Positions 7,301 to 55,678 of a DNA stretch of 64,000 nucleotides are shown here, piece by piece. How positions within the stretch are numbered: the stretch's first letter is position 1; each line of letters opens with the position of its first letter. The DNA comes from Eledone cirrhosa (Eukaryota): positions 304,730,001-304,794,000 of the forward strand of contig OZ024741.1 in the NCBI GenBank assembly GCA_964016885.1, given 5' to 3'. Both the position numbers and the translations under genes were made by a program. The notes under the pieces are model-generated. The model did not search any database, was not told where the DNA came from, and saw nothing but the letters and a program-made list of their open reading frames with translations.

Positions 7301-7477
7301 CATACATACACACACACATATATATATACATACACACACATACATATATATATATACATATATATACACACATACATATATACATATATATACATACATA
7401 CATACATATATATACACATACACACATATATACACATATATACATACATATATACATATATATACACATATATACAC

Positions 7478-13310: not shown

Positions 13311-13943
13311 TATATATATACACACACACACATACATACATATACACACACATACATACATATATATATATACACACACATACATACATATATATATATA
13401 CACACATACATACATATATATATATACACACACATACATACATATATATATATACACACACATACATACATATATATATATACACATACATACATATATA
13501 TATATACACATACATATATATATATATATACATACATACATATATATATATATACATACATATATATATATATATACATACATATATATATATATATACA
13601 TACATATATATATATATATACATACATATATATATATATATACATACATACATATATATATATACATACATACATATATATATATACATACATATATATA
13701 TACATACATATATATATATACATACATATATATATATACATACATATATATATATATATACATACATATATATATATACATATATATATATACATACATA
13801 TATATATATACATACATATATATATATACATACATATATATATATACATACATATATATATATACATACATATATATATATACATACATATATATATATA
13901 CATACATATATATATATACATACATACATATATATATATATAT
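13144..13943. repeat. Mixed (TA)/(CA) microsatellite
   Basis: Direct reading. Confidence 0.95.
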
Positions 13944-16462: not shown

Positions 16463-19073
16463 ATCATCATCATCATCATCATCAACGTTTAACGTCCGTG
16501 TTCCACGCTTGCATGGGTTTGGACGGGGGTAGTCCCACTTGAGGCAAGAGTGATTGTCTTGCTCGCATAGGACTGTCTGGCAGGTTTTCTACAGTTGGAT
16601 GCCCTTCCTAACACCAACCACATTTACAGTGTGGGTCTGGGAGGTTTTTACCGTGTTGCCTACACGGCCACATTACAGCGTGGACTGTGTGTTTTTTTGT
16701 CGTGACACCTACACGATCTCATTTGTTTCGGCCTCGATGGCGCGGCACCAACATAACTTTACATAGAACGGGGTGGTGTGGATCGGGTGGGGGTGGTGGT
16801 GGTGGGACGGGGTGTATTTTGTTAGAGATGCCTACTGGCTGGAGTAGGTTTTACTATATATTTAGGTAAGGCGGGTCTTCTCTGTTACTGAGTACCGCCA
16901 AAGGTCTCGGTCCAGTGACATTGTCTTGGAGAGGTGTAAGTGTGTGATGTCGGAGTTTATCAGCTCGTCCCAGGTTTTTCTAGGTCTGCCTATTCCGTGA
17001 CTACCGTCTATCTTTATTGCCCTGCACTTTGTTATACAGCTATCGACTTTCATGCGCATCACGTGTCCATACCAACGTAGCCTTCTCTCGAGTAAACAAC
17101 ATCTGATCCCTCTTATCTCTAATTTTTTCCTTAGTTCGTTTATGCTTTGCCGTTCACGTATATTACTGTTACACATCCAGCGGAGCATGCAAGCTTCGTT
17201 CCTCTCTAGTCTGCGTATATCCTCTGCACACAATGCCCAGGTCTCACTGCCATGCAGCATTGCTGTTCGTATGCAGGCATCGTACAACCTGCCTTTCATT
17301 TTTAGTGAGAACCCTTTAGCAGCTAATAGTGGTATAAGCTCGCTGAACTTTTTCCAACCAGTTCTGACTCTAGCTACAGTACTTTCAGAGCACCCTCCCC
17401 CACTGCTGATTTTATCGCCCAGGTAACGGAAGCTGTCCACTATTTCTATAGAACCCTCTGCGCAATTGAAAGAGCTAGTAGTTTGTGGGCACTTGCTGCT
17501 ACTTATTGCACCAGAGCACCGGCCACATGTAAAATCTATGTTCTTAGTTAGCTTACCTGTGATCCCACTACATCTTTTATGCACCCATACTTTGCATTTA
17601 GGACATAAAATGGAGTTTCTACCTACGCCTTTCCTACACACCGAGCACGACCATTTCCCAGAAGGGACCGCCGCCTTGTTTTCTTTCCTACAAACTAGTA
17701 CTTTGGTCTTAGCCAGGTTAATTTTAAGTCCTTTTGACTCTAGGCCGTGCTTCCATGTTTGGAATTTCTTCTCTAGCTCGGCCATTGATTCCGCTATGAG
17801 TGTCAGGTCGTCTGCGTATAGGAGTTCCCATGGGCAGCCTGTCTTGAACTCCTCTGTTATAGCCTGAAGGGCAATAATAAATAGTAGTGGACTGAGAACA
17901 GAGCCCTGATGGACGCCAACTTTTACGCTAAACTCTTCACTATATTCGTTGTTAATTCTAACCTTGCTGACTGTTTCTTTATACATGGCTTGTATAGCCC
18001 TCACAAGCCATTCGTCAACGCCTAGTTTTCTAAGAGCCCACCAGATAATGGAGCGGGGGACTCTGTCGAAGGCTTTCTCCAAGTCGACAAAAGCTAAGTA
18101 GAGGGGTTTACCTTTAGCTAGGTACTTCTCCTGTAGTTGTCGTACTATGAAAAGAGCGTCTGTGGTACTTTTGCCTGACACAAACCCGAACTGCATTTCA
18201 TCTAGGTCAATTCTCTCTCTGATTAGTTGCGCTATTACTTTTTCCGTGACCTTCATGACCTGGTCGATTAATTTAATGCCTCTATAGTTACTCCTATCTA
18301 GGGCGTCTCCTTTACCCTTATAACAGTTAACGATGATGCTGCTATGCCAGTCCTTCGGAACAACCCCATTCTGTACGACTTGGTTAACTATGCGGGTGAC
18401 CATGGTGTGTCCCACCGTGCCAGATGCCTTCAGCATCTCAGCAACTATTTCCGAAGGCCCAGCCGCCTTACCAGTCTTCATATCCTTGATTGCCTTACTT
18501 ATTATACTCCCCTCGACTAACACTGCTGGTCCCTCTATTGGGTCGATATGGGGGAGACTGCCTTTCTCCCAATTATTCTCCTCATTTAGTAGCCTTTCAT
18601 AGTGACACTTCCAAGCTACCTTCTTATCAGCGTCGGTGATGGCAAGTGTGCCATCGTCGTTTAGTACACACTTCTCCCCGACAATATCACGGTTTTCCTT
18701 GACGCATTGCCTAGCAATCCTGAACACCTCACGTTTTTGGTCATCGCGTTGTAGAACATGCTTGAACTTTCTTTCCTCAGCTTCCCTTCTTGCTAAGTAC
18801 ACTTGTCTCCTAGCTTCCCTCCTGGCCACTAGATAGTCCTCTCTACTTCCCCCATCCCGCCATACTTTCCAAGCCTGCTTTTTGGCCTTAATTGACCCCT
18901 CCACCTTACTGTTCCACCACCATGTTACTCTCCTCCTGCCTACAGGCCTGCTCCAGCCACAGACTTCGTCTGTCGCCAACAGCAGGTTTGCTTTCAGAAA
19001 TTCCCACTCTCCCTCTATATTGTCCGACTCTAAATGTTCTTCCTTACTGTCGAAAGCATCAAGTAATATGCTT
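16463..19073 (-). mobile_element. RTE LINE subfamily A, 5'-truncated, uninterrupted ORF and (GAT)n tail
   Basis: ORF 16862-19177 non-repeat part differs from the 34243 ORF at only a few residues; tail appears as atcatcatc at 16463-16483. Confidence 0.97.
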
Positions 19074-19930: not shown

Positions 19931-22545
19931 ACAAATTAAGCAAAAACATTCTTGACAGGGTGATACTGCAAATTAAGAACTTGGATTGTGTATCTAACCT
20001 GAGCTTGTGGAAGGGAACTGGAGAGGTTGTTGAGTGGTTTAGGCAAATTAAATATGACAATAATAATAGGTTTATTCAACTTGATATAGCTAACTATTAT
20101 TCTTCTATTACCCCTAGTCTACTAAATAAGGCACTAAATTACGCATTCAAACATACGGACCTAACTAGCAAAGAAATGCATATTATATTATCGGCTAGGA
20201 AAACTTTGATAGAATTTAATGACAAATTATGGACCAGAGCAGATAGAGATAGCAATTTTGACATAACTATGGGATCTTCTGACTCAGCTCAGGTAACTGA
20301 CCTTGTGGGCTTATTTTTAATCAATTCGCTACATAGGAAAATACCTGGTACTACCGGAGGTTTATATAGGGATGACATGCTTTTACTTATTAATAATAAT
20401 AACCCTGAACTAAATAGAAAATGTAAACAAATTACAAAATTTTTTAATTACTTTAACCTTAAAATAGAAATTGAGAACAACCATAGAATAGTCAATTTCC
20501 TAGATATAACATTAAATCTCAACACATGTCTCCACTATCCTTTTCACAAGTTGAATGAAAACTTAAACTATGTCAACTTTAACTCTAACCACCCCAGATC
20601 TGTCAAAAACACTATAGTAAACTCAGTCCAAAAACGTATCTCTAGGATCTCGTCGAATAGAAAGATTTTTGACGAAAAGGCCCAATACTATAATGATGCA
20701 CTAGCTAGGGCAGGGTATGCTGATAAGATTGTGTACATAGATAATGATAGACAAACTAAACAAAGTAACAACTTTTTTAATTACGGCAACAACATTAACA
20801 ACTATAATAGAAAGCATTACAATAATTCCAAAGGACAAAAAAGAAATAGAACTAGGAACATAATTTGGTTTGCCCCCCCCCCCCCCTCTCACTAAACATT
20901 AAAACCCACATCGCTAAATTATTTTTCAAAGCTCTTGATAATCGCTTCCCTAGAACACATAGGTATCACTCAATCTTCAATAGGCATACAATTAAATTAA
21001 CCTACTCATCCACCAAAAATTTAGCACAAAATATTAATAGAATAAATAATAGGAACTTAAAACCTACTGATAATAGCATAAATAATATACAAGTTAACAA
21101 ATATAACTGTAGAGATAGATCTAAATGTCCGTTAAATAACAACTGCTTAGTTAAAAATATAGTATACAATTGTAATGTTAATACTGACTCTAATTCTTTT
21201 AACTACGTCGGTTCCACATCGACGGAATTTAAACTTCGCTATAATAACCACAAGAATTCTTTCACAGATCCAAATAAAAAATCTTCAACGGCACTATCAG
21301 GGGTACTCTGGCAACTTAAGCTAGATAACGTTTGATATTCGACGGCTTGGAATATAGTCTCAAGAGGGATTCCTTTTAATTCATCCTCTGAGACATGTGA
21401 CCTCTGCGCAGAGGAGATATTCTTTATACTAAAATCTAAAAATTCCCTTAACCTACGGACAAATTTATTCAGTTGTTGCAAACATAGATTAAACTCAACG
21501 TTTAAATATAAATTTAAATTTAAAATGTAGTATATTTAGTTTGATTTATATTTATATGAGAACTAGCCGATAAATCTTTTGATCCCTAAATCTTTGATTC
21601 CCTCTTTTTACTCTTTTTATTGTTTAATTTATTTTATTTATTTTTATTTTTATCTAAACATTCCTCATGAAAAATTAAGCTACCCTAAAAGCCGATGCTC
21701 CAAATTTTTTGAATTAACCTTACACTAGATAAACTTCTATATTAAATATAGGAACATATGTAGACATTATTGGACATCATAATCTTTTTGCGATATTCTT
21801 TGCTAGATGTGATTTGATAGATAATTTTTGGCTTTGTCTTGTAATGAACTTGGCAATATATTGTCAATTAACTTTGAAGGGTTGTTCTTTGTGGTTTATT
21901 TTTATTTTTATTCTTTTAGTATTGTAGTATTCTATAATATTTTTATTTTTATTTTATTTTTAATATTTTTATATGCAAATTTTTAATACGTAATATTTTT
22001 TTAATACGTAGTATTTTTAATATGCAATATTTTTATTATGTAATATTCTTTCGTAATATTTTTTTAGTTTTCTATTCTATATTTTTATATATTTTTACTT
22101 ATTATTATTATTATTGTTATCTTTGTTTATAATATAATATATATTTTCGATTAGTATATTGAAATCTGCTCTCTATTTCTGCTTGATAGATAATCTTGTA
22201 GAGTAATCGCAAGAATAATAATACGCTCAAATTTTTTATACCACATTGAGAATGTTTTCCGATAACTTAGAGTTTGCGGAGTGAATCAGTTGGATTCACA
22301 TTGAGATTTGTAGCTGTCACATAGACATATGAATTTTTAAAACTAAACATAAGATAATGAATTTTCACACATTGTGAATACTTGTTTCATTCAGGAATAC
22401 TGATATTTACAATATAGTGTAAGTTTTATAAATACTAATACATTAAAACATAGGGTTTTCTACGCCTCGAATATGTCTGGCTATTTTTAAATTTTTTTCT
22501 CTCTCTATATCTCTCTATATATCTCCCTTACATTAATACTTGAGC

Positions 22546-23125: not shown

Positions 23126-24098
<973 letters not shown>

Positions 24099-27000
24099 TC
24101 TCTCTCTCCTCTCTCTCTCTCATTTCGTATTTCAAGTCCAAATAGCCATTCTATCGCTAAAACAAACTACATTTTCTGTTCCTATTAAGTGCTAAATACG
24201 TTTAGGTTTTTGGACGTATTTAACTGAACAAATTTTGTATTTTTGTTAATCGCTTGTTAAATGCATAGACAAATCTCAATCATTACCTTCTTGCTAGCTA
24301 TTTTCAAACCTTAATTCCTAACGTATTTTCAAACCCCAAAAAAAGCAAAATCCTTTCCTTCTTCCTTCTTCGAAGGCACGGGGCGGTCAAACGCCTAACA
24401 CCCACAGCCATCATGTGGCCCCCTACCCTCGCACTCTCTCTCTCTCTCTCTCTCCCTATAAATATATGATAGGAATTCACTTCGCCAAATTTCATTTCTT
24501 TGCCTGCTGTCCGAACGAAAATCATGTAAACGTAAGGTACAGACTTCATCTCTCTCTCCTCTCTCTCTCTCATTTCGTATTTCAAGTCCAAATAGCCATT
24601 CTATCGCTAAAACAAACTACATTTTCTGTTCCTATTAAGTGCTAAATACGTTTAGGTTTTTGGACGTATTTAACTGAACAAATTTTGTATTTTTGTTAAT
24701 CGCTTGTTAAATGCATAGACAAATCTCAATCATTACCTTCTTGCTAGCTATTTTCAAACCTTAATTCCTAACGTATTTTCAAACCCCAAAAAAAGCAAAA
24801 TCCTTTCCTTCTTCCTTCTTCGAAGGCACGGGGCGGTCAAACGCCTAACACCCACAGCCATCATGTGGCCCCCTACCCTCGCACTCTCTCTCTCTCTCTC
24901 TCTCCCTATAAATATATGATAGGAATTCACTTCGCCAAATTTCATTTCTTTGCCTGCTGTCCGAACGAAAATCATGTAAACGTAAGGTACAGACTTCATC
25001 TCTCTCTCCTCTCTCTCTCTCATTTCGTATTATTTCAAGTCCAAATAGCCATTCTATCGCTAAAACAAACTACATTTTCTGTTCCTATTAAGTGCTAAAT
25101 ACGTTTAGGTTTTTGGACGTATTTAACTGAACAAATTTTGTATTTTTGTTAATCGCTTGTTAAATGCATAGACAAATCTCAATCATTACCTTCTTGCTAG
25201 CTATTTTCAAACCTTAATTCCTAACGTATTTTCAAACCCCAAAAAAAGCAAAATCCTTTCCTTCTTCCTTCTTCGAAGGCACGGGGCGGTCAAACGCCTA
25301 ACACCCACAGCCATCATGTGGCCCCCTACCCTCGCACTCTCTCTCTCTCTCTCTCTCCCTATAAATATATGATAGGAATTCACTTCGCCAAATTTCATTT
25401 CTTTGCCTGCTGTCCGAACGAAAATCATGTAAACGTAAGGTACAGACTTCATCTCTCTCTCCTCTCTCTCTCTCATTTCGTATTTCAAGTCCAAATAGCC
25501 ATTCTATCGCTAAAACAAACTACATTTTCTGTTCCTATTAAGTGCTAAATACGTTTAGGTTTTTGGACGTATTTAACTGAACAAATTTTGTATTTTTGTT
25601 AATCGCTTGTTAAATGCATAGACAAATCTCAATCATTACCTTCTTGCTAGCTATTTTCAAACCTTAATTCCTAACGTATTTTCAAACCCCAAAAAAAGCA
25701 AAATCCTTTCCTTCTTCCTTCTTCGAAGGCACGGGGCGGTCAAACGCCTAACACCCACAGCCATCATGTGGCCCCCTACCCTCGCACTCTCTCTCTCTCT
25801 CTCTCTCCCTATAAATATATGATAGGAATTCACTTCGCCAAATTTCATTTCTTTGCCTGCTGTCCGAACGAAAATCATGTAAACGTAAGGTACAGACTTC
25901 ATCTCTCTCTCCTCTCTCTCTCTCATTTCGTATTTCAAGTCCAAATAGCCATTCTATCGCTAAAACAAACTACATTTTCTGTTCCTATTAAGTGCTAAAT
26001 ACGTTTAGGTTTTTGGACGTATTTAACTGAACAAATTTTGTATTTTTGTTAATCGCTTGTTAAATGCATAGACAAATCTCAATCATTACCTTCTTGCTAG
26101 CTATTTTCAAACCTTAATTCCTAACGTATTTTCAAACCCCAAAAAAAGCAAAATCCTTTCCTTCTTCCTTCTTCGAAGGCACGGGGCGGTCAAACGCCTA
26201 ACACCCACAGCCATCATGTGGCCCCCTACCCTCGCACTCTCTCTCTCTCTCTCTCTCCCTATAAATATATGATAGGAATTCACTTCGCCAAATTTCATTT
26301 CTTTGCCTGCTGTCCGAACGAAAATCATGTAAACGTAAGGTACAGACTTCATCTCTCTCTCCTCTCTCTCTCTCATTTCGTATTTCAAGTCCAAATAGCC
26401 ATTCTATCGCTAAAACAAACTACATTTTCTGTTCCTATTAAGTGCTAAATACGTTTAGGTTTTTGGACGTATTTAACTGAACAAATTTTGTATTTTTGTT
26501 AATCGCTTGTTAAATGCATAGACAAATCTCAATCATTACCTTCTTGCTAGCTATTTTCAAACCTTAATTCCTAACGTATTTTCAAACCCCAAAAAAAGCA
26601 AAATCCTTTCCTTCTTCCTTCTTCGAAGGCACGGGGCGGTCAAACGCCTAACACCCACAGCCATCATGTGGCCCCCTACCCTCGCACTCTCTCTCTCTCT
26701 CTCTCTCCCTATAAATATATGATAGGAATTCACTTCGCCAAATTTCATTTCTTTGCCTGCTGTCCGAACGAAAATCATGTAAACGTAAGGTACAGACTTC
26801 ATCATCTCTCTCTCCTCTCTCTCTCTCATTTCGTATTTCAAGTCCAAATAGCCATTCTATCGCTAAAACAAACTACATTTTCTGTTCCTATTAAGTGCTA
26901 AATACGTTTAGGTTTTTGGACGTATTTAACTGAACAAATTTTGTATTTTTGTTAATCGCTTGTTAAATGCATAGACAAATCTCAATCATTACCTTCTTGC

Positions 27001-30000
27001 TAGCTATTTTCAAACCTTAATTCCTAACGTATTTTCAAACCCCAAAAAAAGCAAAATCCTTTCCTTCTTCCTTCTTCGAAGGCACGGGGCGGTCAAACGC
27101 CTAACACCCACAGCCATCATGTGGCCCCCTACCCTCGCACTCTCTCTCTCTCTCTCTCTCCCTATAAATATATGATAGGAATTCACTTCGCCAAATTTCA
27201 TTTCTTTGCCTGCTGTCCGAACGAAAATCATGTAAACGTAAGGTACAGACTTCATCTCTCTCTCCTCTCTCTCTCTCATTTCGTATTTCAAGTCCAAATA
27301 GCCATTCTATCGCTAAAACAAACTACATTTTCTGTTCCTATTAAGTGCTAAATACGTTTAGGTTTTTGGACGTATTTAACTGAACAAATTTTGTATTTTT
27401 GTTAATCGCTTGTTAAATGCATAGACAAATCTCAATCATTACCTTCTTGCTAGCTATTTTCAAACCTTAATTCCTAACGTATTTTCAAACCCCAAAAAAA
27501 GCAAAATCCTTTCCTTCTTCCTTCTTCGAAGGCACGGGGCGGTCAAACGCCTAACACCCACAGCCATCATGTGGCCCCCTACCCTCGCACTCTCTCTCTC
27601 TCTCTCTCTCCCTATAAATATATGATAGGAATTCACTTCGCCAAATTTCATTTCTTTGCCTGCTGTCCGAACGAAAATCATGTAAACGTAAGGTACAGAC
27701 TTCATCTCTCTCTCCTCTCTCTCTCTCATTTCGTATTTCAAGTCCAAATAGCCATTCTATCGCTAAAACAAACTACATTTTCTGTTCCTATTAAGTGCTA
27801 AATACGTTTAGGTTTTTGGACGTATTTAACTGAACAAATTTTGTATTTTTGTTAATCGCTTGTTAAATGCATAGACAAATCTCAATCATTACCTTCTTGC
27901 TAGCTATTTTCAAACCTTAATTCCTAACGTATTTTCAAACCCCAAAAAAAGCAAAATCCTTTCCTTCTTCCTTCTTCGAAGGCACGGGGCGGTCAAACGC
28001 CTAACACCCACAGCCATCATGTGGCCCCCTACCCTCGCACTCTCTCTCTCTCTCTCTCTCCCTATAAATATATGATAGGAATTCACTTCGCCAAATTTCA
28101 TTTCTTTGCCTGCTGTCCGAACGAAAATCATGTAAACGTAAGGTACAGACTTCATCTCTCTCTCCTCTCTCTCTCTCATTTCGTATTTCAAGTCCAAATA
28201 GCCATTCTATCGCTAAAACAAACTACATTTTCTGTTCCTATTAAGTGCTAAATACGTTTAGGTTTTTGGACGTATTTAACTGAACAAATTTTGTATTTTT
28301 GTTAATCGCTTGTTAAATGCATAGACAAATCTCAATCATTACCTTCTTGCTAGCTATTTTCAAACCTTAATTCCTAACGTATTTTCAAACCCCAAAAAAA
28401 GCAAAATCCTTTCCTTCTTCCTTCTTCGAAGGCACGGGGCGGTCAAACGCCTAACACCCACAGCCATCATGTGGCCCCCTACCCTCGCACTCTCTCTCTC
28501 TCTCTCTCTCCCTATAAATATATGATAGGAATTCACTTCGCCAAATTTCATTTCTTTGCCTGCTGTCCGAACGAAAATCATGTAAACGTAAGGTACAGAC
28601 TTCATCTCTCTCTCCTCTCTCTCTCTCATTTCGTATTTCAAGTCCAAATAGCCATTCTATCGCTAAAACAAACTACATTTTCTGTTCCTATTAAGTGCTA
28701 AATACGTTTAGGTTTTTGGACGTATTTAACTGAACAAATTTTGTATTTTTGTTAATCGCTTGTTAAATGCATAGACAAATCTCAATCATTACCTTCTTGC
28801 TAGCTATTTTCAAACCTTAATTCCTAACGTATTTTCAAACCCCAAAAAAAGCAAAATCCTTTCCTTCTTCCTTCTTCGAAGGCACGGGGCGGTCAAACGC
28901 CTAACACCCACAGCCATCATGTGGCCCCCTACCCTCGCACTCTCTCTCTCTCTCTCTCTCCCTATAAATATATGATAGGAATTCACTTCGCCAAATTTCA
29001 TTTCTTTGCCTGCTGTCCGAACGAAAATCATGTAAACGTAAGGTACAGACTTCATCTCTCTCTCCTCTCTCTCTCTCATTTCGTATTTCAAGTCCAAATA
29101 GCCATTCTATCGCTAAAACAAACTACATTTTCTGTTCCTATTAAGTGCTAAATACGTTTAGGTTTTTGGACGTATTTAACTGAACAAATTTTGTATTTTT
29201 GTTAATCGCTTGTTAAATGCATAGACAAATCTCAATCATTACCTTCTTGCTAGCTATTTTCAAACCTTAATTCCTAACGTATTTTCAAACCCCAAAAAAA
29301 GCAAAATCCTTTCCTTCTTCCTTCTTCGAAGGCACGGGGCGGTCAAACGCCTAACACCCACAGCCATCATGTGGCCCCCTACCCTCGCACTCTCTCTCTC
29401 TCTCTCTCTCCCTATAAATATATGATAGGAATTCACTTCGCCAAATTTCATTTCTTTGCCTGCTGTCCGAACGAAAATCATGTAAACGTAAGGTACAGAC
29501 TTCATCTCTCTCTCCTCTCTCTCTCTCATTTCGTATTTCAAGTCCAAATAGCCATTCTATCGCTAAAACAAACTACATTTTCTGTTCCTATTAAGTGCTA
29601 AATACGTTTAGGTTTTTGGACGTATTTAACTGAACAAATTTTGTATTTTTGTTAATCGCTTGTTAAATGCATAGACAAATCTCAATCATTACCTTCTTGC
29701 TAGCTATTTTCAAACCTTAATTCCTAACGTATTTTCAAACCCCAAAAAAAGCAAAATCCTTTCCTTCTTCCTTCTTCGAAGGCACGGGGCGGTCAAACGC
29801 CTAACACCCACAGCCATCATGTGGCCCCCTACCCTCGCACTCTCTCTCTCTCTCTCTCTCCCTATAAATATATGATAGGAATTCACTTCGCCAAATTTCA
29901 TTTCTTTGCCTGCTGTCCGAACGAAAATCATGTAAACGTAAGGTACAGACTTCATCTCTCTCTCCTCTCTCTCTCTCATTTCGTATTTCAAGTCCAAATA

Positions 30001-33000
30001 GCCATTCTATCGCTAAAACAAACTACATTTTCTGTTCCTATTAAGTGCTAAATACGTTTAGGTTTTTGGACGTATTTAACTGAACAAATTTTGTATTTTT
30101 GTTAATCGCTTGTTAAATGCATAGACAAATCTCAATCATTACCTTCTTGCTAGCTATTTTCAAACCTTAATTCCTAACGTATTTTCAAACCCCAAAAAAA
30201 GCAAAATCCTTTCCTTCTTCCTTCTTCGAAGGCACGGGGCGGTCAAACGCCTAACACCCACAGCCATCATGTGGCCCCCTACCCTCGCACTCTCTCTCTC
30301 TCTCTCTCTCCCTATAAATATATGATAGGAATTCACTTCGCCAAATTTCATTTCTTTGCCTGCTGTCCGAACGAAAATCATGTAAACGTAAGGTACAGAC
30401 TTCATCTCTCTCTCCTCTCTCTCTCTCATTTCGTATTTCAAGTCCAAATAGCCATTCTATCGCTAAAACAAACTACATTTTCTGTTCCTATTAAGTGCTA
30501 AATACGTTTAGGTTTTTGGACGTATTTAACTGAACAAATTTTGTATTTTTGTTAATCGCTTGTTAAATGCATAGACAAATCTCAATCATTACCTTCTTGC
30601 TAGCTATTTTCAAACCTTAATTCCTAACGTATTTTCAAACCCCAAAAAAAGCAAAATCCTTTCCTTCTTCCTTCTTCGAAGGCACGGGGCGGTCAAACGC
30701 CTAACACCCACAGCCATCATGTGGCCCCCTACCCTCGCACTCTCTCTCTCTCTCTCTCTCCCTATAAATATATGATAGGAATTCACTTCGCCAAATTTCA
30801 TTTCTTTGCCTGCTGTCCGAACGAAAATCATGTAAACGTAAGGTACAGACTTCATCTCTCTCTCCTCTCTCTCTCTCATTTCGTATTTCAAGTCCAAATA
30901 GCCATTCTATCGCTAAAACAAACTACATTTTCTGTTCCTATTAAGTGCTAAATACGTTTAGGTTTTTGGACGTATTTAACTGAACAAATTTTGTATTTTT
31001 GTTAATCGCTTGTTAAATGCATAGACAAATCTCAATCATTACCTTCTTGCTAGCTATTTTCAAACCTTAATTCCTAACGTATTTTCAAACCCCAAAAAAA
31101 GCAAAATCCTTTCCTTCTTCCTTCTTCGAAGGCACGGGGCGGTCAAACGCCTAACACCCACAGCCATCATGTGGCCCCCTACCCTCGCACTCTCTCTCTC
31201 TCTCTCTCTCCCTATAAATATATGATAGGAATTCACTTCGCCAAATTTCATTTCTTTGCCTGCTGTCCGAACGAAAATCATGTAAACGTAAGGTACAGAC
31301 TTCATCTCTCTCTCCTCTCTCTCTCTCATTTCGTATTTCAAGTCCAAATAGCCATTCTATCGCTAAAACAAACTACATTTTCTGTTCCTATTAAGTGCTA
31401 AATACGTTTAGGTTTTTGGACGTATTTAACTGAACAAATTTTGTATTTTTGTTAATCGCTTGTTAAATGCATAGACAAATCTCAATCATTACCTTCTTGC
31501 TAGCTATTTTCAAACCTTAATTCCTAACGTATTTTCAAACCCCAAAAAAAGCAAAATCCTTTCCTTCTTCCTTCTTCGAAGGCACGGGGCGGTCAAACGC
31601 CTAACACCCACAGCCATCATGTGGCCCCCTACCCTCGCACTCTCTCTCTCTCTCTCTCTCCCTATAAATATATGATAGGAATTCACTTCGCCAAATTTCA
31701 TTTCTTTGCCTGCTGTCCGAACGAAAATCATGTAAACGTAAGGTACAGACTTCATCTCTCTCTCCTCTCTCTCTCTCATTTCGTATTTCAAGTCCAAATA
31801 GCCATTCTATCGCTAAAACAAACTACATTTTCTGTTCCTATTAAGTGCTAAATACGTTTAGGTTTTTGGACGTATTTAACTGAACAAATTTTGTATTTTT
31901 GTTAATCGCTTGTTAAATGCATAGACAAATCTCAATCATTACCTTCTTGCTAGCTATTTTCAAACCTTAATTCCTAACGTATTTTCAAACCCCAAAAAAA
32001 GCAAAATCCTTTCCTTCTTCCTTCTTCGAAGGCACGGGGCGGTCAAACGCCTAACACCCACAGCCATCATGTGGCCCCCTACCCTCGCACTCTCTCTCTC
32101 TCTCTCTCTCCCTATAAATATATGATAGGAATTCACTTCGCCAAATTTCATTTCTTTGCCTGCTGTCCGAACGAAAATCATGTAAACGTAAGGTACAGAC
32201 TTCATCTCTCTCTCCTCTCTCTCTCTCATTTCGTATTTCAAGTCCAAATAGCCATTCTATCGCTAAAACAAACTACATTTTCTGTTCCTATTAAGTGCTA
32301 AATACGTTTAGGTTTTTGGACGTATTTAACTGAACAAATTTTGTATTTTTGTTAATCGCTTGTTAAATGCATAGACAAATCTCAATCATTACCTTCTTGC
32401 TAGCTATTTTCAAACCTTAATTCCTAACGTATTTTCAAACCCCAAAAAAAGCAAAATCCTTTCCTTCTTCCTTCTTCGAAGGCACGGGGCGGTCAAACGC
32501 CTAACACCCACAGCCATCATGTGGCCCCCTACCCTCGCACTCTCTCTCTCTCTCTCTCTCCCTATAAATATATGATAGGAATTCACTTCGCCAAATTTCA
32601 TTTCTTTGCCTGCTGTCCGAACGAAAATCATGTAAACGTAAGGTACAGACTTCATCTCTCTCTCCTCTCTCTCTCTCATTTCGTATTTCAAGTCCAAATA
32701 GCCATTCTATCGCTAAAACAAACTACATTTTCTGTTCCTATTAAGTGCTAAATACGTTTAGGTTTTTGGACGTATTTAACTGAACAAATTTTGTATTTTT
32801 GTTAATCGCTTGTTAAATGCATAGACAAATCTCAATCATTACCTTCTTGCTAGCTATTTTCAAACCTTAATTCCTAACGTATTTTCAAACCCCAAAAAAA
32901 GCAAAATCCTTTCCTTCTTCCTTCTTCGAAGGCACGGGGCGGTCAAACGCCTAACACCCACAGCCATCATGTGGCCCCCTACCCTCGCACTCTCTCTCTC

Positions 33001-33835
33001 TCTCTCTCTCCCTATAAATATATGATAGGAATTCACTTCGCCAAATTTCATTTCTTTGCCTGCTGTCCGAACGAAAATCATGTAAACGTAAGGTACAGAC
33101 TTCATCTCTCTCTCCTCTCTCTCTCTCATTTCGTATTTCAAGTCCAAATAGCCATTCTATCGCTAAAACAAACTACATTTTCTGTTCCTATTAAGTGCTA
33201 AATACGTTTAGGTTTTTGGACGTATTTAACTGAACAAATTTTGTATTTTTGTTAATCGCTTGTTAAATGCATAGACAAATCTCAATCATTACCTTCTTGC
33301 TAGCTATTTTCAAACCTTAATTCCTAACGTATTTTCAAACCCCAAAAAAAGCAAAATCCTTTCCTTCTTCCTTCTTCGAAGGCACGGGGCGGTCAAACGC
33401 CTAACACCCACAGCCATCATGTGGCCCCCTACCCTCGCACTCTCTCTCTCTCTCTCTCTCCCTATAAATATATGATAGGAATTCACTTCGCCAAATTTCA
33501 TTTCTTTGCCTGCTGTCCGAACGAAAATCATGTAAACGTAAGGTACAGACTTCATCTCTCTCTCCTCTCTCTCTCTCATTTCGTATTTCAAGTCCAAATA
33601 GCCATTCTATCGCTAAAACAAACTACATTTTCTGTTCCTATTAAGTGCTAAATACGTTTAGGTTTTTGGACGTATTTAACTGAACAAATTTTGTATTTTT
33701 GTTAATCGCTTGTTAAATGCATAGACAAATCTCAATCATTACCTTCTTGCTAGCTATTTTCAAACCTTAATTCCTAACGTATTTTCAAACCCCAAAAAAA
33801 GCAAAATCCTTTCCTTCTTCCTTCTTCGAAGGCAC

Positions 33836-33953
33836 GGGGCGGTCAAACGCCTAACACCCACAGCCATCATGTGGCCCCCTACCCTCGCACTCTCTCTCTC
33901 TCTCTCTCTCCCTATAAATATATGATAGGAATTCACTTCGCCAAATTTCATTT
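33836..33953 (+). promoter_or_regulatory. Pol II core-promoter-like module, repeated in every monomer (last copy shown)
   Basis: GGGGCGG GC box, CATGTG E-box-like site, (CT)n tract, TATAAATA at 33913, Inr-consensus CCAAATT with A at 33943 (30 nt from the TATA T), second Inr-like TCATTTC just after. Confidence 0.55.
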
Positions 33954-33987
33954 CTTTGCCTGCTGTCCGAACGAAAATCATGTAAAC

Positions 33988-34203
33988 GTAAGGTACAGAC
34001 TTCATCTCTCTCTCCTCTCTCTCTCTCATTTCGTATTTCAAGTCCAAATAGCCATTCTATCGCTAAAACAAACTACATTTTCTGTTCCTATTAAGTGCTA
34101 AATACGTTTAGGTTTTTGGACGTATTTAACTGAACAAATTTTGTATTTTTGTTAATCGCTTGTTAAATGCATAGACAAATCTCAATCATTACCTTCTTGC
34201 TAG
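33988..34203 (+). other. Candidate 216-nt GT-AG intron present in each monomer; last acceptor abuts the LINE ORF
   Basis: Donor GTAAG at 33988 (alternative AAG|GTACAG at 33993); branch-like ctcaat, pyrimidine tract ttaccttcttg, TAG at 34201-34203. Confidence 0.45.
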
Positions 34204-34247
34204 CTACCCAACACCCCTCCCTCCCACCCCCACACACCACCATTGCT

Positions 34248-34316
34248 ATTACGTGGACCAATCATAAAACAGCCCCCACGTATCACCAGTATTATTACGC
34301 GGACCAATCAGAAACC
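34248..34316 (+). promoter_or_regulatory. Two CCAAT boxes in a direct repeat in the LINE 5' unique region
   Basis: tattacgtggaCCAATcat (34258) and tattacgcggaCCAATcag (34304), NF-Y consensus-like. Confidence 0.4.
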
Positions 34317-34434
34317 AGAGGCCTATACTATCGCTTGCCTGGTTGCCTTTCGATATACGATATATGATGGATGGATGGACTGCGGAATCCTGGAGAGTGG
34401 AGGTGAGAGAGAAAAATCTGGACGCTCAGCGACA

Positions 34435-37400
34435 ATGCCAAAGATAAAGACAAATTCACCCCTTGGACGAGAATGCGAGCACTCCTCATTGTTTCGACCG
34501 CGGACGGCTAACATAACACCATCGCCCCCCGCCCCTCACCGCCCCCAACCCCCAAACGCAATCCAAAACTTCAGAGTTGGTACCATAAATGTAGGCACCC
34601 TAAAGGGTCGCGCTAACGAGGTTGTAGAAATGCTTGAACGTAAGGAGGTCGATGTTTGTTGTATTCAAGAGACCAGGTGGAGGGGTGGGTCTGCTAGGTT
34701 CATTGAGGGTAAAAAACGTTGTTATAAGCTTTTCTGGGTGGGAAACGACGATGGGCTGGGTGGAGTAGGAATCATGGTAGCAGAAAAGTGGGCAGATAAG
34801 ATAATAGACGTAAATAGAGTGAACGACAGAATAATTAAAATACGACTTGTCCTCAATAGAACTACGGTGACAGTAATATCTGCGTACGCACCCCAATCCG
34901 GACTGCCCGGCACTATAAAAGACAGATTCTATGAGACACTGATGCTAACTACCTCCCAAATATCCGACAGTGACTATATAATTATCGCAGGCGACCTAAA
35001 TGGTCACGTTGGACAACATTGTGACGGCTACGACGAAATCCATGGAGGCTATGGGTTTGGTACTAGAAATGAGGAAGGCTCCAGAATCCTGGAATTCTGT
35101 GATGCAAATAACCTAACTATCTGTAACACTAACTTCAAAAAACGTGACAATCACCTGATCACCTATAGATCCGGGGAACACACAAGCCAGGTAGATTATA
35201 TCCTTACCAGAAGACGTGACAGAGTGTCTGTTGTTAACACTAAATCCCTCCCCCATGAAGAATGCACCTCCCAACATAGACTGATAATTAGCGACCTCAT
35301 AGTCAGGACGAGACGTACTCGACAACAGAAGAGGACTATCCTCAGGAGGAAAATATGGAAGTTAAAGGACCCCACAGCCAGGAATAAATTCCAAAGCATA
35401 TTACTTGATGCTTTCGACAGTAAGGAAGAACATTTAGAGTCGGACAATATAGAGGGAGAGTGGGAATTTCTGAAAGCAAACCTGCTGTTGGCGACAGACG
35501 AGGTCTGTGGCTGGAGCAGGCCTGTAGGCAGGAGGAGAGTAACATGGTGGTGGAACAGTAAGGTGGAGGGGTCAATTAAGGCCAAAAAGCAGGCTTGGAA
35601 AGTATGGCGGGATGGGGGAAGTAGAGAGGACTATCAAGTGGCCAGGAGGGAAGCTAGGAGACAAGTGTACTTAGCAAGAAGGGAAGCTGAGGAAAGAAAG
35701 TTCAAGCATGTTCTACAACGCGATGACCAAAAACGTGAGGTGTTCAGGATTGCTAGGCAATGCGTCAAGGAAAACCGTGATATTGTCGGGGAGAAGTGTG
35801 TACTAAACGACGATGGCACACTTGCCATCACCGACGCTGATAAGAAGGTAGCTTGGAAGTGTCACTATGAAAGGCTTCTAAATGAGGAGAATAATTGGGA
35901 GAAAGGCAGTCTCCCCCATATCGACCCAATAGAGGGACCAGCAGTGTTAGTCGAGGGGAGTGTAATAAGTAAGGCAATCAAGGATATGAAGACTGGTAAG
36001 GCGGCTGGGCCTTCGGAAATAGTTGCTGAGATGCTGAAGGCATCTGGCACGGTGGGACACACCATGGTCACCCGCATAGTTAACCAAGTCGTACAAAACG
36101 GGGTTGTTCCGAAGGACTGGCATAGCAGCATCATCGTTAACTGTTATAAGGGTAAAGGAGACGCCCTAGATAGGAGTAACTATAGAGGCATTAAATTAAT
36201 CGACCAGGTCATGAAGGTCACGGAAAGAGTAATAGCGCAGCTAATCAGAGAGAGAATTGACCTAGATGAAATGCAGTTCGGGTTTGTGTCAGGCAAAAGT
36301 ACCACAGACGCTCTTTTCATAGTACGACAACTACAAGAGAAGTACCTAGCTAAAGGTAAACCCCTCTACTTAGCTTTTGTCGACTTGGAGAAAGCCTTCG
36401 ACAGAGTCCCCCGCTCCATTATCTGGTGGGCTCTTAGAAAACTAGGCGTTGACGAATGGCTTGTGAGGGCTATACAAGCCATGTATAAAGAAACAGTCAG
36501 CAAGGTTAGAATTAACAACGAATATAGTGAAGAGTTTAGCGTAAAAGTCGGCGTCCATCAGGGCTCTGTTCTCAGTCCACTACTATTTATTATTGCCCTT
36601 CAGGCCATAACAGAGGAGTTCAAGACAGGCTGCCCATGGGAACTCCTATACGCAGACGACCTGACACTCATAGCGGAATCAATGGCCGAGCTAGAGAAGA
36701 AATTCCAAACATGGAAGCACGGCCTAGAGTCAAAAGGACTTAAAATTAACCTGGCTAAGACCAAAGTACTAGTTTGTAGGAAAGAAAACAAGGCGGCGGT
36801 CCCTTCTGGGAAATGGTCGTGCTCGGTGTGTAGGAAAGGCGTAGGTAGAAACTCCATTTTATGTCCTAAATGCAAAGTATGGGTGCATAAAAGATGTAGT
36901 GGGATCACAGGTAGGCTAACTAAGAACATAGATTTTACATGTGGCCGGTGCTCTGGTGCAATAAGTAGCAGCAAGTGCCCACAAACTACTAGCTCTTTCA
37001 ATTGCGCAGAGGGTTCTATAGAAATAGTGGACAGCTTCCGTTACCTGGGCGATAAAATCAGCAGTGGGGGAGGGTGCTCTGAAAGTACTGTAGCTAGAGT
37101 CAGAACTGGTTGGAAAAAGTTCAGAGAGCTTATACCACTATTAGCTGCTAAAGGGTTCTCACTAAAAATGAAAGGCAGGTTGTACGATGCCTGCATACGA
37201 ACAGCAATGCTGCATGGCAGTGAGACCTGGGCATTGTGTGCAGAGGATATACGCAGACTAGAGAGGAACGAAGCTTGCATGCTCCGCTGGATGTGTAACA
37301 GTAATATACGTGAACGGCAAAGCATAAACGAACTAAGGAATAAATTAGAGATAAGAGGGATCAGATGTTGTTTACTCGAGAGAAGGCTACGTTGGTATGG

Positions 37401-37605
37401 ACACGTGATGCGCATGAAAGTCGATAGCTGTATAACAAAGTGCAGGGCAATAAAGATAGACGGTAGTCACGGAATAGGCAGACCTAGAAAAACCTGGGAC
37501 GAGCTGATAAACTCCGACATCACACACTTACACCTCTCCAAGACAATGTCACTGGACCGAGACCTTTGGCGGTACTCAGTAACAGAGAAGACCCGCCTTA
37601 CCTAA
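34435..37605 (+). CDS. RTE polyprotein: APE endonuclease, reverse transcriptase with inserted C4HC3 PHD finger
   Basis: GTINVGTL, IQETRW, SAYAPQ, GDLNGH, VDYIL, SQHR (APE); [35 protein letters not shown] (RT); C-terminal [15 protein letters not shown] typical of RTE. Frame is open from 34204; in-frame ATGs at 34375 and 34435; choice of start is uncertain. Confidence 0.93.
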   Translation: MPKIKTNSPLGRECEHSSLFRPRTANITPSPPAPHRPQPPNAIQNFRVGTINVGTLKGRANEVVEMLERKEVDVCCIQETRWRGGSARFIEGKKRCYKLFWVGNDDGLGGVGIMVAEKWADKIIDVNRVNDRIIKIRLVLNRTTVTVISAYAPQSGLPGTIKDRFYETLMLTTSQISDSDYIIIAGDLNGHVGQHCDGYDEIHGGYGFGTRNEEGSRILEFCDANNLTICNTNFKKRDNHLITYRSGEHTSQVDYILTRRRDRVSVVNTKSLPHEECTSQHRLIISDLIVRTRRTRQQKRTILRRKIWKLKDPTARNKFQSILLDAFDSKEEHLESDNIEGEWEFLKANLLLATDEVCGWSRPVGRRRVTWWWNSKVEGSIKAKKQAWKVWRDGGSREDYQVARREARRQVYLARREAEERKFKHVLQRDDQKREVFRIARQCVKENRDIVGEKCVLNDDGTLAITDADKKVAWKCHYERLLNEENNWEKGSLPHIDPIEGPAVLVEGSVISKAIKDMKTGKAAGPSEIVAEMLKASGTVGHTMVTRIVNQVVQNGVVPKDWHSSIIVNCYKGKGDALDRSNYRGIKLIDQVMKVTERVIAQLIRERIDLDEMQFGFVSGKSTTDALFIVRQLQEKYLAKGKPLYLAFVDLEKAFDRVPRSIIWWALRKLGVDEWLVRAIQAMYKETVSKVRINNEYSEEFSVKVGVHQGSVLSPLLFIIALQAITEEFKTGCPWELLYADDLTLIAESMAELEKKFQTWKHGLESKGLKINLAKTKVLVCRKENKAAVPSGKWSCSVCRKGVGRNSILCPKCKVWVHKRCSGITGRLTKNIDFTCGRCSGAISSSKCPQTTSSFNCAEGSIEIVDSFRYLGDKISSGGGCSESTVARVRTGWKKFRELIPLLAAKGFSLKMKGRLYDACIRTAMLHGSETWALCAEDIRRLERNEACMLRWMCNSNIRERQSINELRNKLEIRGIRCCLLERRLRWYGHVMRMKVDSCITKCRAIKIDGSHGIGRPRKTWDELINSDITHLHLSKTMSLDRDLWRYSVTEKTRLT

Positions 37606-38000
37606 ATATATAGTAAAACCTACTCCAGCCAGTAGGCATCTCTAACAAATACACCCCGTCCCACCACCCCCACCCGATCCACACCACCCCGTTCTATGTA
37701 AAGTTATGTTGGTGCCACGCCATCGAGGCCGAAACAAATGAGATCGTGTAGGTGTCACGACAAAAAAACACACAGTCCACGCTGTAATGTGGCCGTGTAG
37801 GCAACACGGTAAAAACCTCCCAGACCCACACTGTAAATGTGGTTGGTGTTAGGAAGGGCATCCAACTGTAGAAAACCTGCCAGACAGTCCTATGCGAGCA
37901 AGACAATCACTCTTGCCTCAAGTGGGACTACCCCCGTCCAAACCCATGCAAGCGTGGAACACGGACGTTAAACGCTGATGATGATGATGATGATGATGAT

Positions 38001-38784
<784 letters not shown>

Positions 38785-40004
38785 TTATTCTTCTCTAAGA
38801 ACCTCTCTTGCATTTCTCTCACCAAGAAGAGGGCATCTGTTGTACTCTTCCCAGGCACAAAACCAAACTGCATCTCATCTAGTTTGACCCTTTCTCTAAT
38901 TAGTTGTGCTAAAATCCTTTCTGCCACTTTCATAACCTGATCTATCAGTTTTATACCCCTATAATTGCTCCTCTCCAAAACATCCCCTTTACCTTTGTAG
39001 CAATTTATGAGAATACTGCTGCACCAGTCTTTGGGTATGACACCACCATATATAGCCCGATTGATGATGCGTGCAACCAGTTTAGTGCCTACGTCTCCTG
39101 ATGCCTTCAGCATCTCAGCAACTATTCCCGATGATCCGGCCGCCTTACCATTTTTCATTTCCCTAATCGCCTTTTGGACCCTATATTCGTCAATCTCAAT
39201 AGCTGGTCCCTCTGTCAGATCTACCAAGGGTAATTTCTCTCTCTCCCATTCGTTCTCCACATTCAACAGTCTCTCATAATGACATTTCCAGGCCTCCTTT
39301 TTCTGGTCATTTGTGACACTAAGTACACCGGCATCATCCCGGACACATTTATCTCGAACAACATCCTGATTTGCATTGACACACTGCCTTGCAATGTGGA
39401 ACACTGCACGCCTCTGATCTTCCCGTCGCAGAACATTGGCAAACCTCCTACTCTCTGCCTCCCTGCGTGCTAAGTACACCCGACGTCTAGCTTCTCTCTT
39501 AGTGGCTGTATATTCTTCCCTACTCCCACCCTTTTTCGAAGCCTTCCATGCTAGTCTTTTGTCTCTAATAGCCTTACCTACTGTGCTGTTCCACCACCAG
39601 GTCACTCTCTGTCTGGTTGGAGCTCTGCTCCAGCCACAGGTTTCATCAGTAGCCTGCAGCAAGTTGTCACGTAAGAACTTCCAGTTATTATCTATGTCAT
39701 GCGTCTCTAAATCGTCTTCTTTTTCGTCATATACATCTTGAAGGGCTTTCCTAAATTTGAATTTTAGTGAAAGGTCTTTCAGCTTCCAGACCTTTCTTCT
39801 CCACACCTTCCTATATGTCTCATTCCATCTCTTGCTTACTGAGATATCACTAACAACTAACCTATGCTGTGGGGTACATTCTTCGATGTCTCCGTCCTCT
39901 GTCATTGTGGTTGTTTGCAAAAGTTGCTCATAAAAGCAGTCTTTCTCATCTTTGCCTAGACCTGCTTGGGGAGCATAGACCGAGATGATTGTCAGTAGTC
40001 TCCT
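38785..40004 (-). mobile_element. RTE LINE subfamily C internal fragment (end of APE to start of RT), with in-frame internal deletion
   Basis: ISVYAPQ...EECTPQHRL...WWWN...NYRGIKL..QFGF in ORF 37968-41396; diverged from A and B. Confidence 0.92.
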
Positions 40005-41418: not shown

Positions 41419-43205
41419 AGAGGTGTAATTGGGTAAGGTCAGCTTTTATCACCTCATCCCAGGTCATCTTGCGTCTCCCCACTCCGCGGTTTCCATCGAC
41501 TTCTAGTGCTCTGCACCTTTTTATGCAGCTGTCATCCTTCATCCGCATCACATGTCCATACCAGCGCAACCGCCTCTCCTGCACACAGCATTTGGTTCCT
41601 CTTATGCTCAGTCTCTCTGTCAATTCATTTATGCTTTGTCGTTCACGTATATTACATATCCATCGGATCATGCAGGCTTCGTTTCTCTCTAATCTACGTA
41701 AGTCTTCCACCTGCAGCGCCCAGGTCTCACTACCATGCAACATCGCTGTTCGGATACACGCATCATACAGTCTGCCTTTCATTCTGAGGGAGAAGCCTTT
41801 TGCAGCTAGCAGTGGTAGTAGTTCCCTAAACTTCTTCCATCCTGTTCTTCCCCTAGTTATTGTACTTTCTGAACACCCACCTCCGCTGCTAATTCAGTCA
41901 CCTAGGTAGCAGAAGCTGTCTACTGTTTCTCCAGAGCCCTCCCAGAGATTGGTGGTACTTGTTTCCTGTGGCTGTTTGCTGCATGTGAAGCCTACATTCT
42001 TAATTAAGCTTCCCGAGATCCTGCTACATCTCTTGTGTACCCATTGTTTGCATTTGGGGCAGAGAATGGAGTTCCTACCTACACCTTTCCTACATACTGA
42101 GCAAGGCCATTTCCCTGTGGGGATCGAGGTTCTGTTTTCTCGTCTACTTACAAGGACCATAGTCTTTGTCATGTTGACTTTGAGACCCTTTCTTTCTAGT
42201 CCCTGCTTCCAAGTTTGGAATTTATTCTCTAGTTCTACCATAGATTCAGCTATAAGTGTGAGGTCATCAGCATACAGGAGTTCCCATGGGCATCCGGTCT
42301 TAAACTCCTCCGTTATTGCCTGCAGGACTATGATGAACAGGAGGAGGCTAAGAACAGAGCCCTGGTGGACCCCAACCTTTACGCTAAATTCCTCGCTATA
42401 CTCATTGCTAATCCTAACTTTGCTGACTGCTCCCCTATACATGGCTTGTACCGCTTTCACAAGCCATTCATCTACTCCTAGTTTTCTAAGAGCCCACCAG
42501 ATTACAGCACGTGGAACTCTGTCAAAGGCTTTCTCAAGGTCTACAAATGCCAAGTAGAGTGGCTTACTTTTATCTAGGTACTTTTCCTGTAACTGCCTCA
42601 CAAGGAAGAGGGCATCAGTGGTGCCTCTTCATGGTACAAACCCAAATTGCATCTCGTCTATTTTCACCCGGTCCCTAATCAACTGTGCTATAACTCTTCC
42701 TGTTATTTCACGACCTGGTCCATCAACTTTATACCTCTATAGTTTCCTCTATCTAGTGCATCACCTTTACCTTTGTAGCAGTTGACAATGATGCTACTGC
42801 ACCAATCTTTTGGTATGACACCTAGTATTACCTGGTTAACAATACATGTGGTTTTAGTGTGACCTACAGACCCAGATGCCTTCAGCATCTCGGCAGATAT
42901 ACTCGATGGACTGGTTGCCTTCCCCATCTTCATATCTTTGATTGCTTTACTTACTACGTTGCTGCTGTCTTGTACTGCTGGCCCCTCTATAGGGTGTACT
43001 TGGGGTAGGGTCTCTTCTTCCCATGCATTCTCCTCATTTAGTAATCTATCATAATGACTCTTCCATGCATCTTTCTTCTCAGCACTTGTGAGGGCAAGCT
43101 CACCTTTATCATTCCGGATACACTTCTCTCCAATGACATCACAACTATCTCTGACACACTGCCTCGCAATCTTGAACACCTTACGTTGCAAAACATGCTT
43201 GAATT
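41419..43205 (-). mobile_element. RTE LINE subfamily B, truncated at both ends, with stops, frameshifts and small deletions
   Basis: ORFs 42703-43239, 41894-42601 and the start of 39992-41782 match the 7531-9247 protein. Confidence 0.93.
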
Positions 43206-55424: not shown

Positions 55425-55678
55425 GGTGTTAGGAAGGGCATCCAGCTGTAGAAAACCCGCCAGACAGTCCACGCTGTAATGTGGCCGTGTAGGCAACACG
55501 GTAAAAACCTCCCAGCCCCACACTGTAAATGTGGTTGGTGTTAGGAAGGGCATCCAACTGTAGAAAACCTGCCAGACAGTCCTATGCGAGCAAAAAAATC
55601 ACTCTTGCCTCAAGTGGGACTACCCCCGTCCAAACCCATGCAAGCGTGGAACACGGACGTTAAACGTTGATGATGATG
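55425..55678 (+). mobile_element. RTE subfamily A 3'UTR fragment with internal duplication and (GAT)n tail
   Basis: Matches 37772-38000, preceded by a duplicate of the ggtgttaggaagggcatcc...acagtcc segment. Confidence 0.88.

Follow-up and report, generated by a model that had tools for sequence, protein, structure and literature searches.

Variable tandem arrays of monomers at the 5′ end of a young RTE-like LINE family in Eledone cirrhosa, a putative renewable promoter

Analysis of a 64-kb window of the Eledone cirrhosa genome (the whole stretch of 64,000 nucleotides that was analysed) points to a tandem array of variable length that forms the 5′ end of a young LINE family with a single ORF. 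We consider it likely that this array acts as a putative renewable promoter. According to this explanation, transcription would begin in one of the upstream units, so that every new copy would inherit the units that lie downstream of it. Once a copy is inserted, unequal exchange or replication slippage would increase or decrease its number of whole units, and a gain would restore the promoter that is lost in retrotransposition. Such gain or loss of whole units is possible because any copy with more than one unit contains a direct repeat. The features of the window are as follows.

23126..24098, no strand: CATA/TA minisatellite that makes up the 5′ half of the host tract targeted by the element (TRF; 5′ ends of the family adjoin (TA)n)
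24099..34206, plus strand: tandem array at the 5′ end of the LINE, 450-bp monomers in 22.4 copies, 5′-truncated within a unit (TRF; junction at 158 genomic sites)
33836..33950, plus strand: candidate promoter block of the last monomer with GC box, (CT)n, TATAAATA and Inr (A at 33943) (sequence, shuffle test)
34207..34374, plus strand: tether/5′ UTR with a 46-bp duplication and two CCAAT boxes (GACCAATCA at 34256 and 34302)
34375..37605, plus strand: intact single ORF of 1076 aa with AP endonuclease (~70-305), RT (600-800) and PHD finger (816-859)
37606..38000, plus strand: 3′ UTR, ending in (TGA)8
37999..38788, no strand: CATA/TA minisatellite that makes up the 3′ half of the host tract targeted by the element (TRF)

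TRF gave a period of 450 with 22.4 copies and 99% identity at 24099-34206. Twenty of the 22 whole monomers are identical and the other two carry a 3-nt duplication. The array passes without a gap through the 168-bp tether into the intact ORF, in agreement with the initial annotation, which had described about 22.4 near-identical units running gapless into an intact LINE and had stated that the array does not resume 3′ of the element; indeed, no 450-bp monomer is present in the rest of the window. The candidate promoter block recurs in every unit, the first at 24380-24494, and the GC box (GGGCGG in 24380-24386), TATAAATA (24457) and Inr A (24487) of the first unit were all located as described. 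The 5′ edge of the array, earlier placed about 60 nt past the predicted start, lies ~56 nt downstream of the predicted Inr. Rfam models of structured RNA did not match 33300-34600 at E≤1. The 3′ tail consists of (TGA)8 (37976-38000). The CATA/TA tract that had been noted on both sides of the element is present but not special to it: the flanks match because the family habitually lands in (TA)n tracts, and (TA)3 or longer lies no more than 30 nt from 93 of the 110 5′ ends that were mapped. For this map (TA)n was masked, the position of ten ends was judged by eye and three loci were left out (gap; end not reached; internal deletion).

The ORF harbors AP endonuclease (PF03372/PF14529), RT (PF00078) and PHD finger domains according to Pfam. 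Its best PDB match is L1 ORF2 (E 5e-29), and its ESM Atlas matches are generic RT/endonuclease clusters only. With an AP endonuclease and a non-LTR RT in one ORF, the element is an APE-type non-LTR retrotransposon (LINE). Copies of the family are dispersed and 5′-truncated with a fixed 3′ tail, and 46 of 74 LINE bodies retain a stop-free frame of at least 1050 aa. A domain search of the window element gave no match for ORF1 or RNase H. The single ORF lacking both, and a 3′ end of (TGA)n instead of poly(A), are RTE-type traits; the element thus looks like an RTE, an assignment made from ORF layout and tail. Membership of the L1 clade was rejected, as there is neither an ORF1 nor a poly(A) tail. 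RTE-clade LINEs (RTE-1, BovB and octopus RTE-2_OV) likewise encode APE and RT in one ORF and end in a 3′ microsatellite. RTE-2_OV has a 1109-aa ORF with a zinc finger (PMC9115989), and tail-linked target choice is described for RTE (PMC6007223). The Eledone element differs in the PHD finger after its RT. No description of a tandem 5′ monomer array on an RTE was found in the literature searched.

It is confirmed that the array belongs to the LINE and not to a satellite in which the LINE landed. Across the 3.0-Gb genome, 158 sites carry exactly the same monomer-LINE junction; of the 826 monomer matches, the first 100 include 32 clusters, every one of which adjoins a LINE; and each of the 74 UTR-probe copies on contig C1 has monomer sequence directly upstream. 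The alternative that the LINE was inserted by or into an unrelated satellite, or that the array is an assembly artefact, could be based on the almost perfect identity of the window units and on one array of ~38 units on C4 with no LINE behind it. However, the latter array, the sole candidate for a free satellite, terminates in a 200-N assembly gap, and no free satellite of the monomer is confirmed. Furthermore, the junction is spanned by contigs of two other runs, X4 and X6, in support of the type of junction seen at 34206, and in X1 contigs the end of one unit is followed directly by the start of another. The junction is also present in a further organism (organism C). The probability of this alternative is negligible, and for the linkage itself satellite insertion is ruled out by the repeated identical junctions. 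The proposals that the monomer is part of the LINE 5′ end, is not mainly a free satellite and is also carried by other copies hold up: it is attached at every resolvable locus checked, no free array was found, and no copy with a window-type tether was without monomer sequence.

The monomer copy number varies between LINE copies from <1 to ~100 units, as had been anticipated. Monomer-derived heads range from 27 bp to 47.6 kb (~101 units without a gap) with a median of ~0.6 kb; among 114 heads, 75 are longer than 500 bp, 21 exceed 2 kb, 11 exceed 5 kb and 6 exceed 10 kb. Most contain ~1-1.6 units, and a minority has 5-100 units with block duplications. Loci with long arrays include the one in the window and C4:234.45-234.50 Mb. 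Units are near-identical inside one locus and different between loci. Multi-unit block repeats occur in loci L053, L056, L107, L108 and L137, duplicated blocks of 8 to 12 units are present, and a 1547-bp triplication in L145 includes ~800 bp of host flank. These block duplications, one including flank, indicate that growth of the long arrays took place at the DNA level, most probably once the element had inserted. Maintenance of the monomer by tandem amplification, as initially proposed, is supported. Also in favor of growth as DNA, arrays carry fewer substitutions than expected from the private changes of the bodies (0.40 versus 0.74 per kb, P=0.011), a comparison in which private body changes may derive from unsampled source copies and L108 was parsed for only 7 of ~22 units; L107 (12 versus 0) and L078 (4 versus 0) go in the opposite direction. 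Array length shows an inverse trend with age that is not significant (rho -0.13, P=0.17). Additionally, in the related copies L065 and L104 the upstream units, and only these, are missing 26 nt close to the unit end, and this common deletion points to RNA-level inheritance of more than one unit.

Arrays might also arise at insertion, with the reverse transcriptase re-copying one RNA unit repeatedly and no later DNA recombination. This would account for locus-private variants that run through whole arrays, and for the 3′-most unit of L065, L104, L129 and L099, which retains sequence deleted from the upstream units. It is at odds with the duplicated blocks of 8 to 12 units, the L145 triplication reaching into the flank, the existence of a 47.6-kb array, and locus L060, where four substitutions are common to all 13 units, the 3′-most one included, and a 1780-bp ORF segment is identical to that of six siblings. 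We regard such an origin as quite improbable.

Related lineages carry other monomers. Subfamily B has a diverged unit of ~555-640 bp with its own arrays, and family C has an unalignable unit of ~395 bp without TATA in arrays of up to 10.5 kb; the arrays are attached to a LINE in 17 of 17 cases in B and 10 of 10 in C. The units of A and B are identical in 324 of 412 aligned columns, and their ORFs are 96-99% alike. Units diverge ~6x faster than the ORF yet track it (Spearman 0.75, non-independent pairs). We infer that the monomer sequence turns over fast and is replaced between sister lineages. For family D (~64% aa), no tandem unit was found within ~1.2 kb upstream, a distance covered by 3 of 7 loci. 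A chimeric A/C head considered for L078 was rejected; this locus is an A element inserted into a C monomer.

Copies are 5′-truncated at varied points within units, mostly in (TA)n tracts, which fits the expectation for RNA-templated insertion. The 5′ ends form four clusters, of which the one in the predicted-Inr register (184-196) is not the largest: it holds 8 of 112 ends (expected 3.0), whereas registers 35-58, 374-386 and 408-428, all A/AAAT-rich, hold 21, 12 and 13, respectively. These data bear on a narrower form of the renewable-promoter explanation, in which each unit is a captured host TATA promoter firing at the Inr (24487/33943), so that one promoter is lost every round and DNA amplification is obligatory. 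The 30-nt TATA-Inr spacing and the GC box are in favor of it: in 2000 dinucleotide shuffles, TATA plus Inr at 28-33 nt was obtained in 3.1%, the GC box in 0.9% and both in 0/2000, with motifs chosen post hoc. Register 186-189 accounts for six 5′ ends, half of which lie in the last unit, register 59-185 has few, and the ends per 100 nt drop from 0.16-0.24 to 0.03-0.08 past ~800 nt, about the position of the second unit's Inr. However, an equal peak (10 ends) is found at a non-start AAATTT site (377-382). Among 20 older copies spanning the region, TATAAATA is found in none, CAYGTG in 2 and GGGCGG in 9; the GC box and CATGTG are often absent, and older copies have a (TA)n tract in place of TATAAATA. 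Family C lacks TATA, no host source locus for the monomer promoter was seen, and the donor-like GTAAG and acceptor-like unit end left no spliced copy in the loci examined or genome-wide. The TATA-capture detail is weak because of the (TA)n tract in older copies and the 5′ ends at several AAAT sites; capture of a host TATA-type promoter, as initially proposed, was not upheld, and the narrower form is doubtful.

The GACCAATCA CCAAT box, found twice in the window tether, is present in all 16 tethers of subfamily B and in 25 of the 27 of family C; these conserved boxes sit in the tether and not in the window monomer. Their retention while the monomers differ or are unalignable would suit a core promoter in the tether, with monomers, copied from upstream or read-through transcripts, as upstream enhancer or truncation buffer and with long arrays as neutral satellite-like growth. 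Probe counts that climb from 327 in the tether via 456 to 691 at the ORF start are in line with such an arrangement, but subfamilies confound this rise: one ORF-probe copy examined has a different 5′ region of its own. Moreover, monomer sequence continues upstream in all 74 copies on C1 that match the CCAAT-region probe, hence their RNA began upstream of the tether, and no shared host flank was noticed upstream of arrays when read by eye. We consider a tether promoter of this kind unlikely. The cross-family CCAAT boxes, the excess of ORF-start over tether-probe copies and the stronger clustering of 5′ ends away from the predicted Inr are nevertheless counted against the units as putative promoters.

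Drosophila HeT-A avoids promoter loss by drawing on sequence that lies 5′ of each copy. In HeT-A this sequence is the 3′ end of a neighbouring whole element, whereas the Eledone LINE repeats a 5′ unit only. The A-module of Dictyostelium TRE5-A can be tandemly repeated. Like the Eledone monomer, it is a 5′ module of a non-LTR element; it has plus-strand promoter activity (PMC5391098, PMC4559204), and clade and target are different. Expansion of an internal retroelement repeat to long arrays is also described for satellites derived from transposon UTRs, such as pea PisTR-A from Ogre (PMC9659126, PMC6947457). In contrast, no free array is confirmed in Eledone, where arrays stay on the 5′ end of largely intact LINEs.

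The parallel drawn earlier with mouse L1 is apt: both systems have tethered tandem monomers in variable number and monomer types that differ between lineages. The L1 literature describes mouse and rat monomers (A, F, TF, GF) that are joined by a tether to the ORF, vary in number and are 5′-truncated inside units, related mouse subfamilies with different monomer types, and rare very long arrays ascribed to unequal crossing-over (PMC6454616, PMC9022269, PMC5381506). Mouse monomers are promoters whose growth is partly attributed to unequal crossing-over (PMC6454616, PMC9022269), and renewal of L1 monomer arrays is called unclear (PMC6454616). Promoter activity is proven for the mouse monomers; those of Eledone are candidate promoters by sequence. 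The Eledone element has one ORF and no ORF1, and its units (395-640 bp across lineages) are AT-rich (~38% GC) and not CpG islands.

The Eledone genome contains hundreds of very young, often intact copies with at least two unrelated monomer types. With heads of <1 to ~100 units and locus-private variants, amplification at versus after insertion becomes directly testable. If the units are promoters, LINE clades that are far apart have hit twice upon the same answer to promoter loss. The long heads also show how the 5′ end of a LINE can give rise to arrays on the scale of satellites. We tentatively suggest, as a possibility with somewhat less than even support, that a promoter lying partly outside the transcript and rebuilt by post-insertion DNA amplification has an origin of its own in an RTE lineage, separate from that in mammalian L1, that unrelated monomers replaced one another, and that heads swell to locus-specific satellites of up to ~48 kb. 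Long heads are found in 11 of 114 sampled Eledone copies (>5 kb), compared to 7 of 5765 mouse loci with >10 monomers, and the maximum is ~101 units (47.6 kb) in Eledone versus 50 units (~11 kb) in mouse.

The element in the window is laid out as follows.

24099-34206: 450-bp tandem array, 22.4 copies (TRF)
Contiguous with the array end and followed by the ORF: tether, 168 bp of 5' UTR
34375-37605: ORF of 1076 amino acids with AP-endonuclease, RT and PHD domains
3' of the ORF: 3' UTR, then a (TGA)8 tail

TRF and the reading of the ORF bear out the gapless 22.4-unit array joined to an intact LINE ORF that the initial annotation described, and the GC box, TATAAATA and Inr of the monomer were found where it had placed them. 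Twenty of the 22 whole units are identical and the other two carry a 3-nt duplication; no monomers occur elsewhere within the 64-kb window. The anatomy of the LINE fits RTE. The matching flanks are also real, but they represent the usual target of the family, with (TA)n adjoining 93 of 110 mapped 5' ends. At one locus (L063) the flank on the 5' side is the reverse complement of that on the 3' side, with (TA)n in the middle, a pattern that insertion at the centre of a palindrome would leave. The window further contains copies of this LINE that are truncated at the 5' end, along with fragments of more distantly related families (9250-9966, 13941-15324, 16463-19073, 55461-55678; 7533-9247, 38795-39665, 41419-43187), mostly adjoining (TA)n/CATA tracts. 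Fragments at ~19950-20895 and ~44586-45476 carry a stretch similar to RT and a 'YIGETAR' motif that is GIY-YIG-like, and presumably resemble Penelope-type elements.

The monomer-derived head is real, intrinsic to the LINE and lineage-wide. In the 3.0-Gb assembly, in which the window lies on contig C2, there are 158 exact matches to the 33 nt that span the monomer-tether junction. Among the sites listed, 99 others were fetched, and at the 59 on contigs C1 and C2 that were aligned to the window body the LINE bodies are ~98-99.9% identical to it. Two linkage tests were free of the junction assumption. A monomer-first search with a GC-box probe gave 826 matches, and the 100 at the head of the list fall into 32 clusters. 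The exact junction is present in 18, and the remaining 14 likewise adjoin a LINE 5' end, so that all 32 agree with the linkage proposed initially. The tether-first test spans the copies matched by a UTR probe (327, as compared to 691 matches for an ORF-start probe): monomer sequence lies immediately upstream of all 74 on C1, none thus being a monomer-free copy that would contradict the proposal. Thirty-three of these were new, two of them with just ~20-50 nt of monomer. Five of five extra copies on C2 likewise have monomer directly upstream. Support for the junction beyond the assembly comes from spanning contigs of runs X4 and X6, which carry another organism label; in contigs of run X1, possibly the sample that was assembled, the end of one unit meets the start of another. 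A free satellite was considered and rejected, the sole array with no LINE behind it among those checked ending in a 200-N assembly gap. The larger number of ORF-start matches qualifies this linkage: one such copy, L111 (ORF probe at 7357, plus strand), is 93% identical and has its own, remotely related 5' region, in which a 168-bp segment is triplicated.

The 114 heads measured have a median length of ~0.6 kb, with 75 exceeding 500 bp, 21 exceeding 2 kb and six exceeding 10 kb. The longest (G000:C4:234.452-234.499 Mb; L137, L195, L283, L286-L287) belongs to a single LINE and holds ~101 units in 47.6 kb of gapless sequence, and its common 472-bp unit variant is absent from every other sampled locus. 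A single reverse-transcription event is an implausible source of a 48-kb insertion. Any one locus has near-identical units, but unit length varies between loci, mostly from 450 to 560 bp. Several signs point to array amplification at the DNA level: variants recur at periods of 5 to 12 units (L053, L056, L107, L108, L137), a 1547-bp triplication at L145 includes ~800 bp of flank, and four substitutions are common to all 13 units of L060 although its ORF segment is identical to that of six siblings. The substitution count is also low: 19 arrays, 110.8 kb in total, hold 44 substitutions, as compared to 25 private changes in 33.8 kb of the corresponding bodies (P=0.011). The window array has 0 versus 9.7 expected and L137 4 versus 26.7, with L107 and L078 going in the opposite direction. 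More than one unit passes via RNA as well: in L065 and L104, which are nearest neighbours, 26 nt are missing from the upstream units only. In family A, to which the window element belongs, 5' ends are ~3 times commoner per base 400-800 nt upstream of the junction than in the junction-nearest 400 nt. The family-A element at L078/L158, with a 20-unit head, is inserted within a monomer of the more distant family C.

Older family-A copies (body identity 94-98%) have longer homologous units, mostly fewer than 1.5 each. In the close subfamily B, whose ORF is 96-99% identical, the unit measures 555-640 bp and matches the window unit in 324 of 412 aligned columns; the 17 distinct arrays, of up to seven units, all adjoin a LINE. 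In family C (65-69% amino-acid identity) the unit is ~395 bp long; it gave no alignment to the window's unit and shares only a ~14-19-nt motif with B. All ten fetched C arrays adjoin a C LINE. The longest (G000:C1:378.740-378.751 Mb; L273-L274) has 26 units in 10.5 kb with block duplication. Units diverge ~6 times faster than the ORF, yet track it. At ~79-96 kb on contig C1432 (L284, L285) the monomer arrays of head-to-head B-type and C-type elements abut.

The head is intrinsic to the LINE, truncated within units, variable in number, block-duplicated and replaced between lineages. We consider it probable that transcription starts in an upstream unit of this 5' head and that whole-unit expansion and shrinkage restore promoters. 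Inserts would usually retain 1-1.6 units, and because a direct repeat is present the head could then gain or lose whole units, expansion renewing the promoters.

HeT-A and the tandem TRE5-A A-modules are comparison systems. The mouse L1 monomer system has the same layout as this monomer-tether head, which would work alike, but the element is not an L1. Mouse L1 monomers are proven promoters (PMC9022269, PMC6454616), average 2.7-3.1 with a maximum of 50, and grow partly by unequal crossing-over (PMC6454616). Further literature served for comparison (PMC5381506, PMC4559204, PMC5391098, PMC9115989, PMC6947457, PMC9659126, PMC6007223). Within the open literature, as distinct from Repbase reports and the bulk of subscription journals, no RTE with tandem monomers at its 5' end was found described.

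The start of the copied RNAs must lie within the units or farther upstream. This start, the mouse L1 layout and the motif set, which is rare among sequence shuffles, indirectly support the monomers as candidate promoters. Eight of 112 mapped 5' ends fall at register 184-196 of the unit (expected 3.0), around the predicted Inr A at 187, but larger clusters lie at 35-58 (21 ends, a bin inflated through a ~36-nt insertion in longer variants), 374-386 (12) and 408-428 (13). These clusters are all A/AAAT-rich, so sequence bias explains the peaks equally well. The 5'-end rate drops beyond ~800 nt, which fits a transcription start near the Inr of the second unit and also fits whole-unit shrinkage of arrays until little overlap is left. 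The tether, with a CCAAT box conserved across A, B and C, offers a real rival as putative promoter. Capture of a TATA-type promoter, as first proposed, is the weaker version of the promoter reading: older copies have a (TA)n tract in place of TATAAATA and often lack the GC box and CATGTG, and the family-C unit has no TATA box. No spliced genomic copy was found, despite a donor-like GTAAG in the window monomer (~33987-33995) and an acceptor-like pyrimidine-CTAG at the unit end (34190-34203); subfamily B is similar in these motifs.
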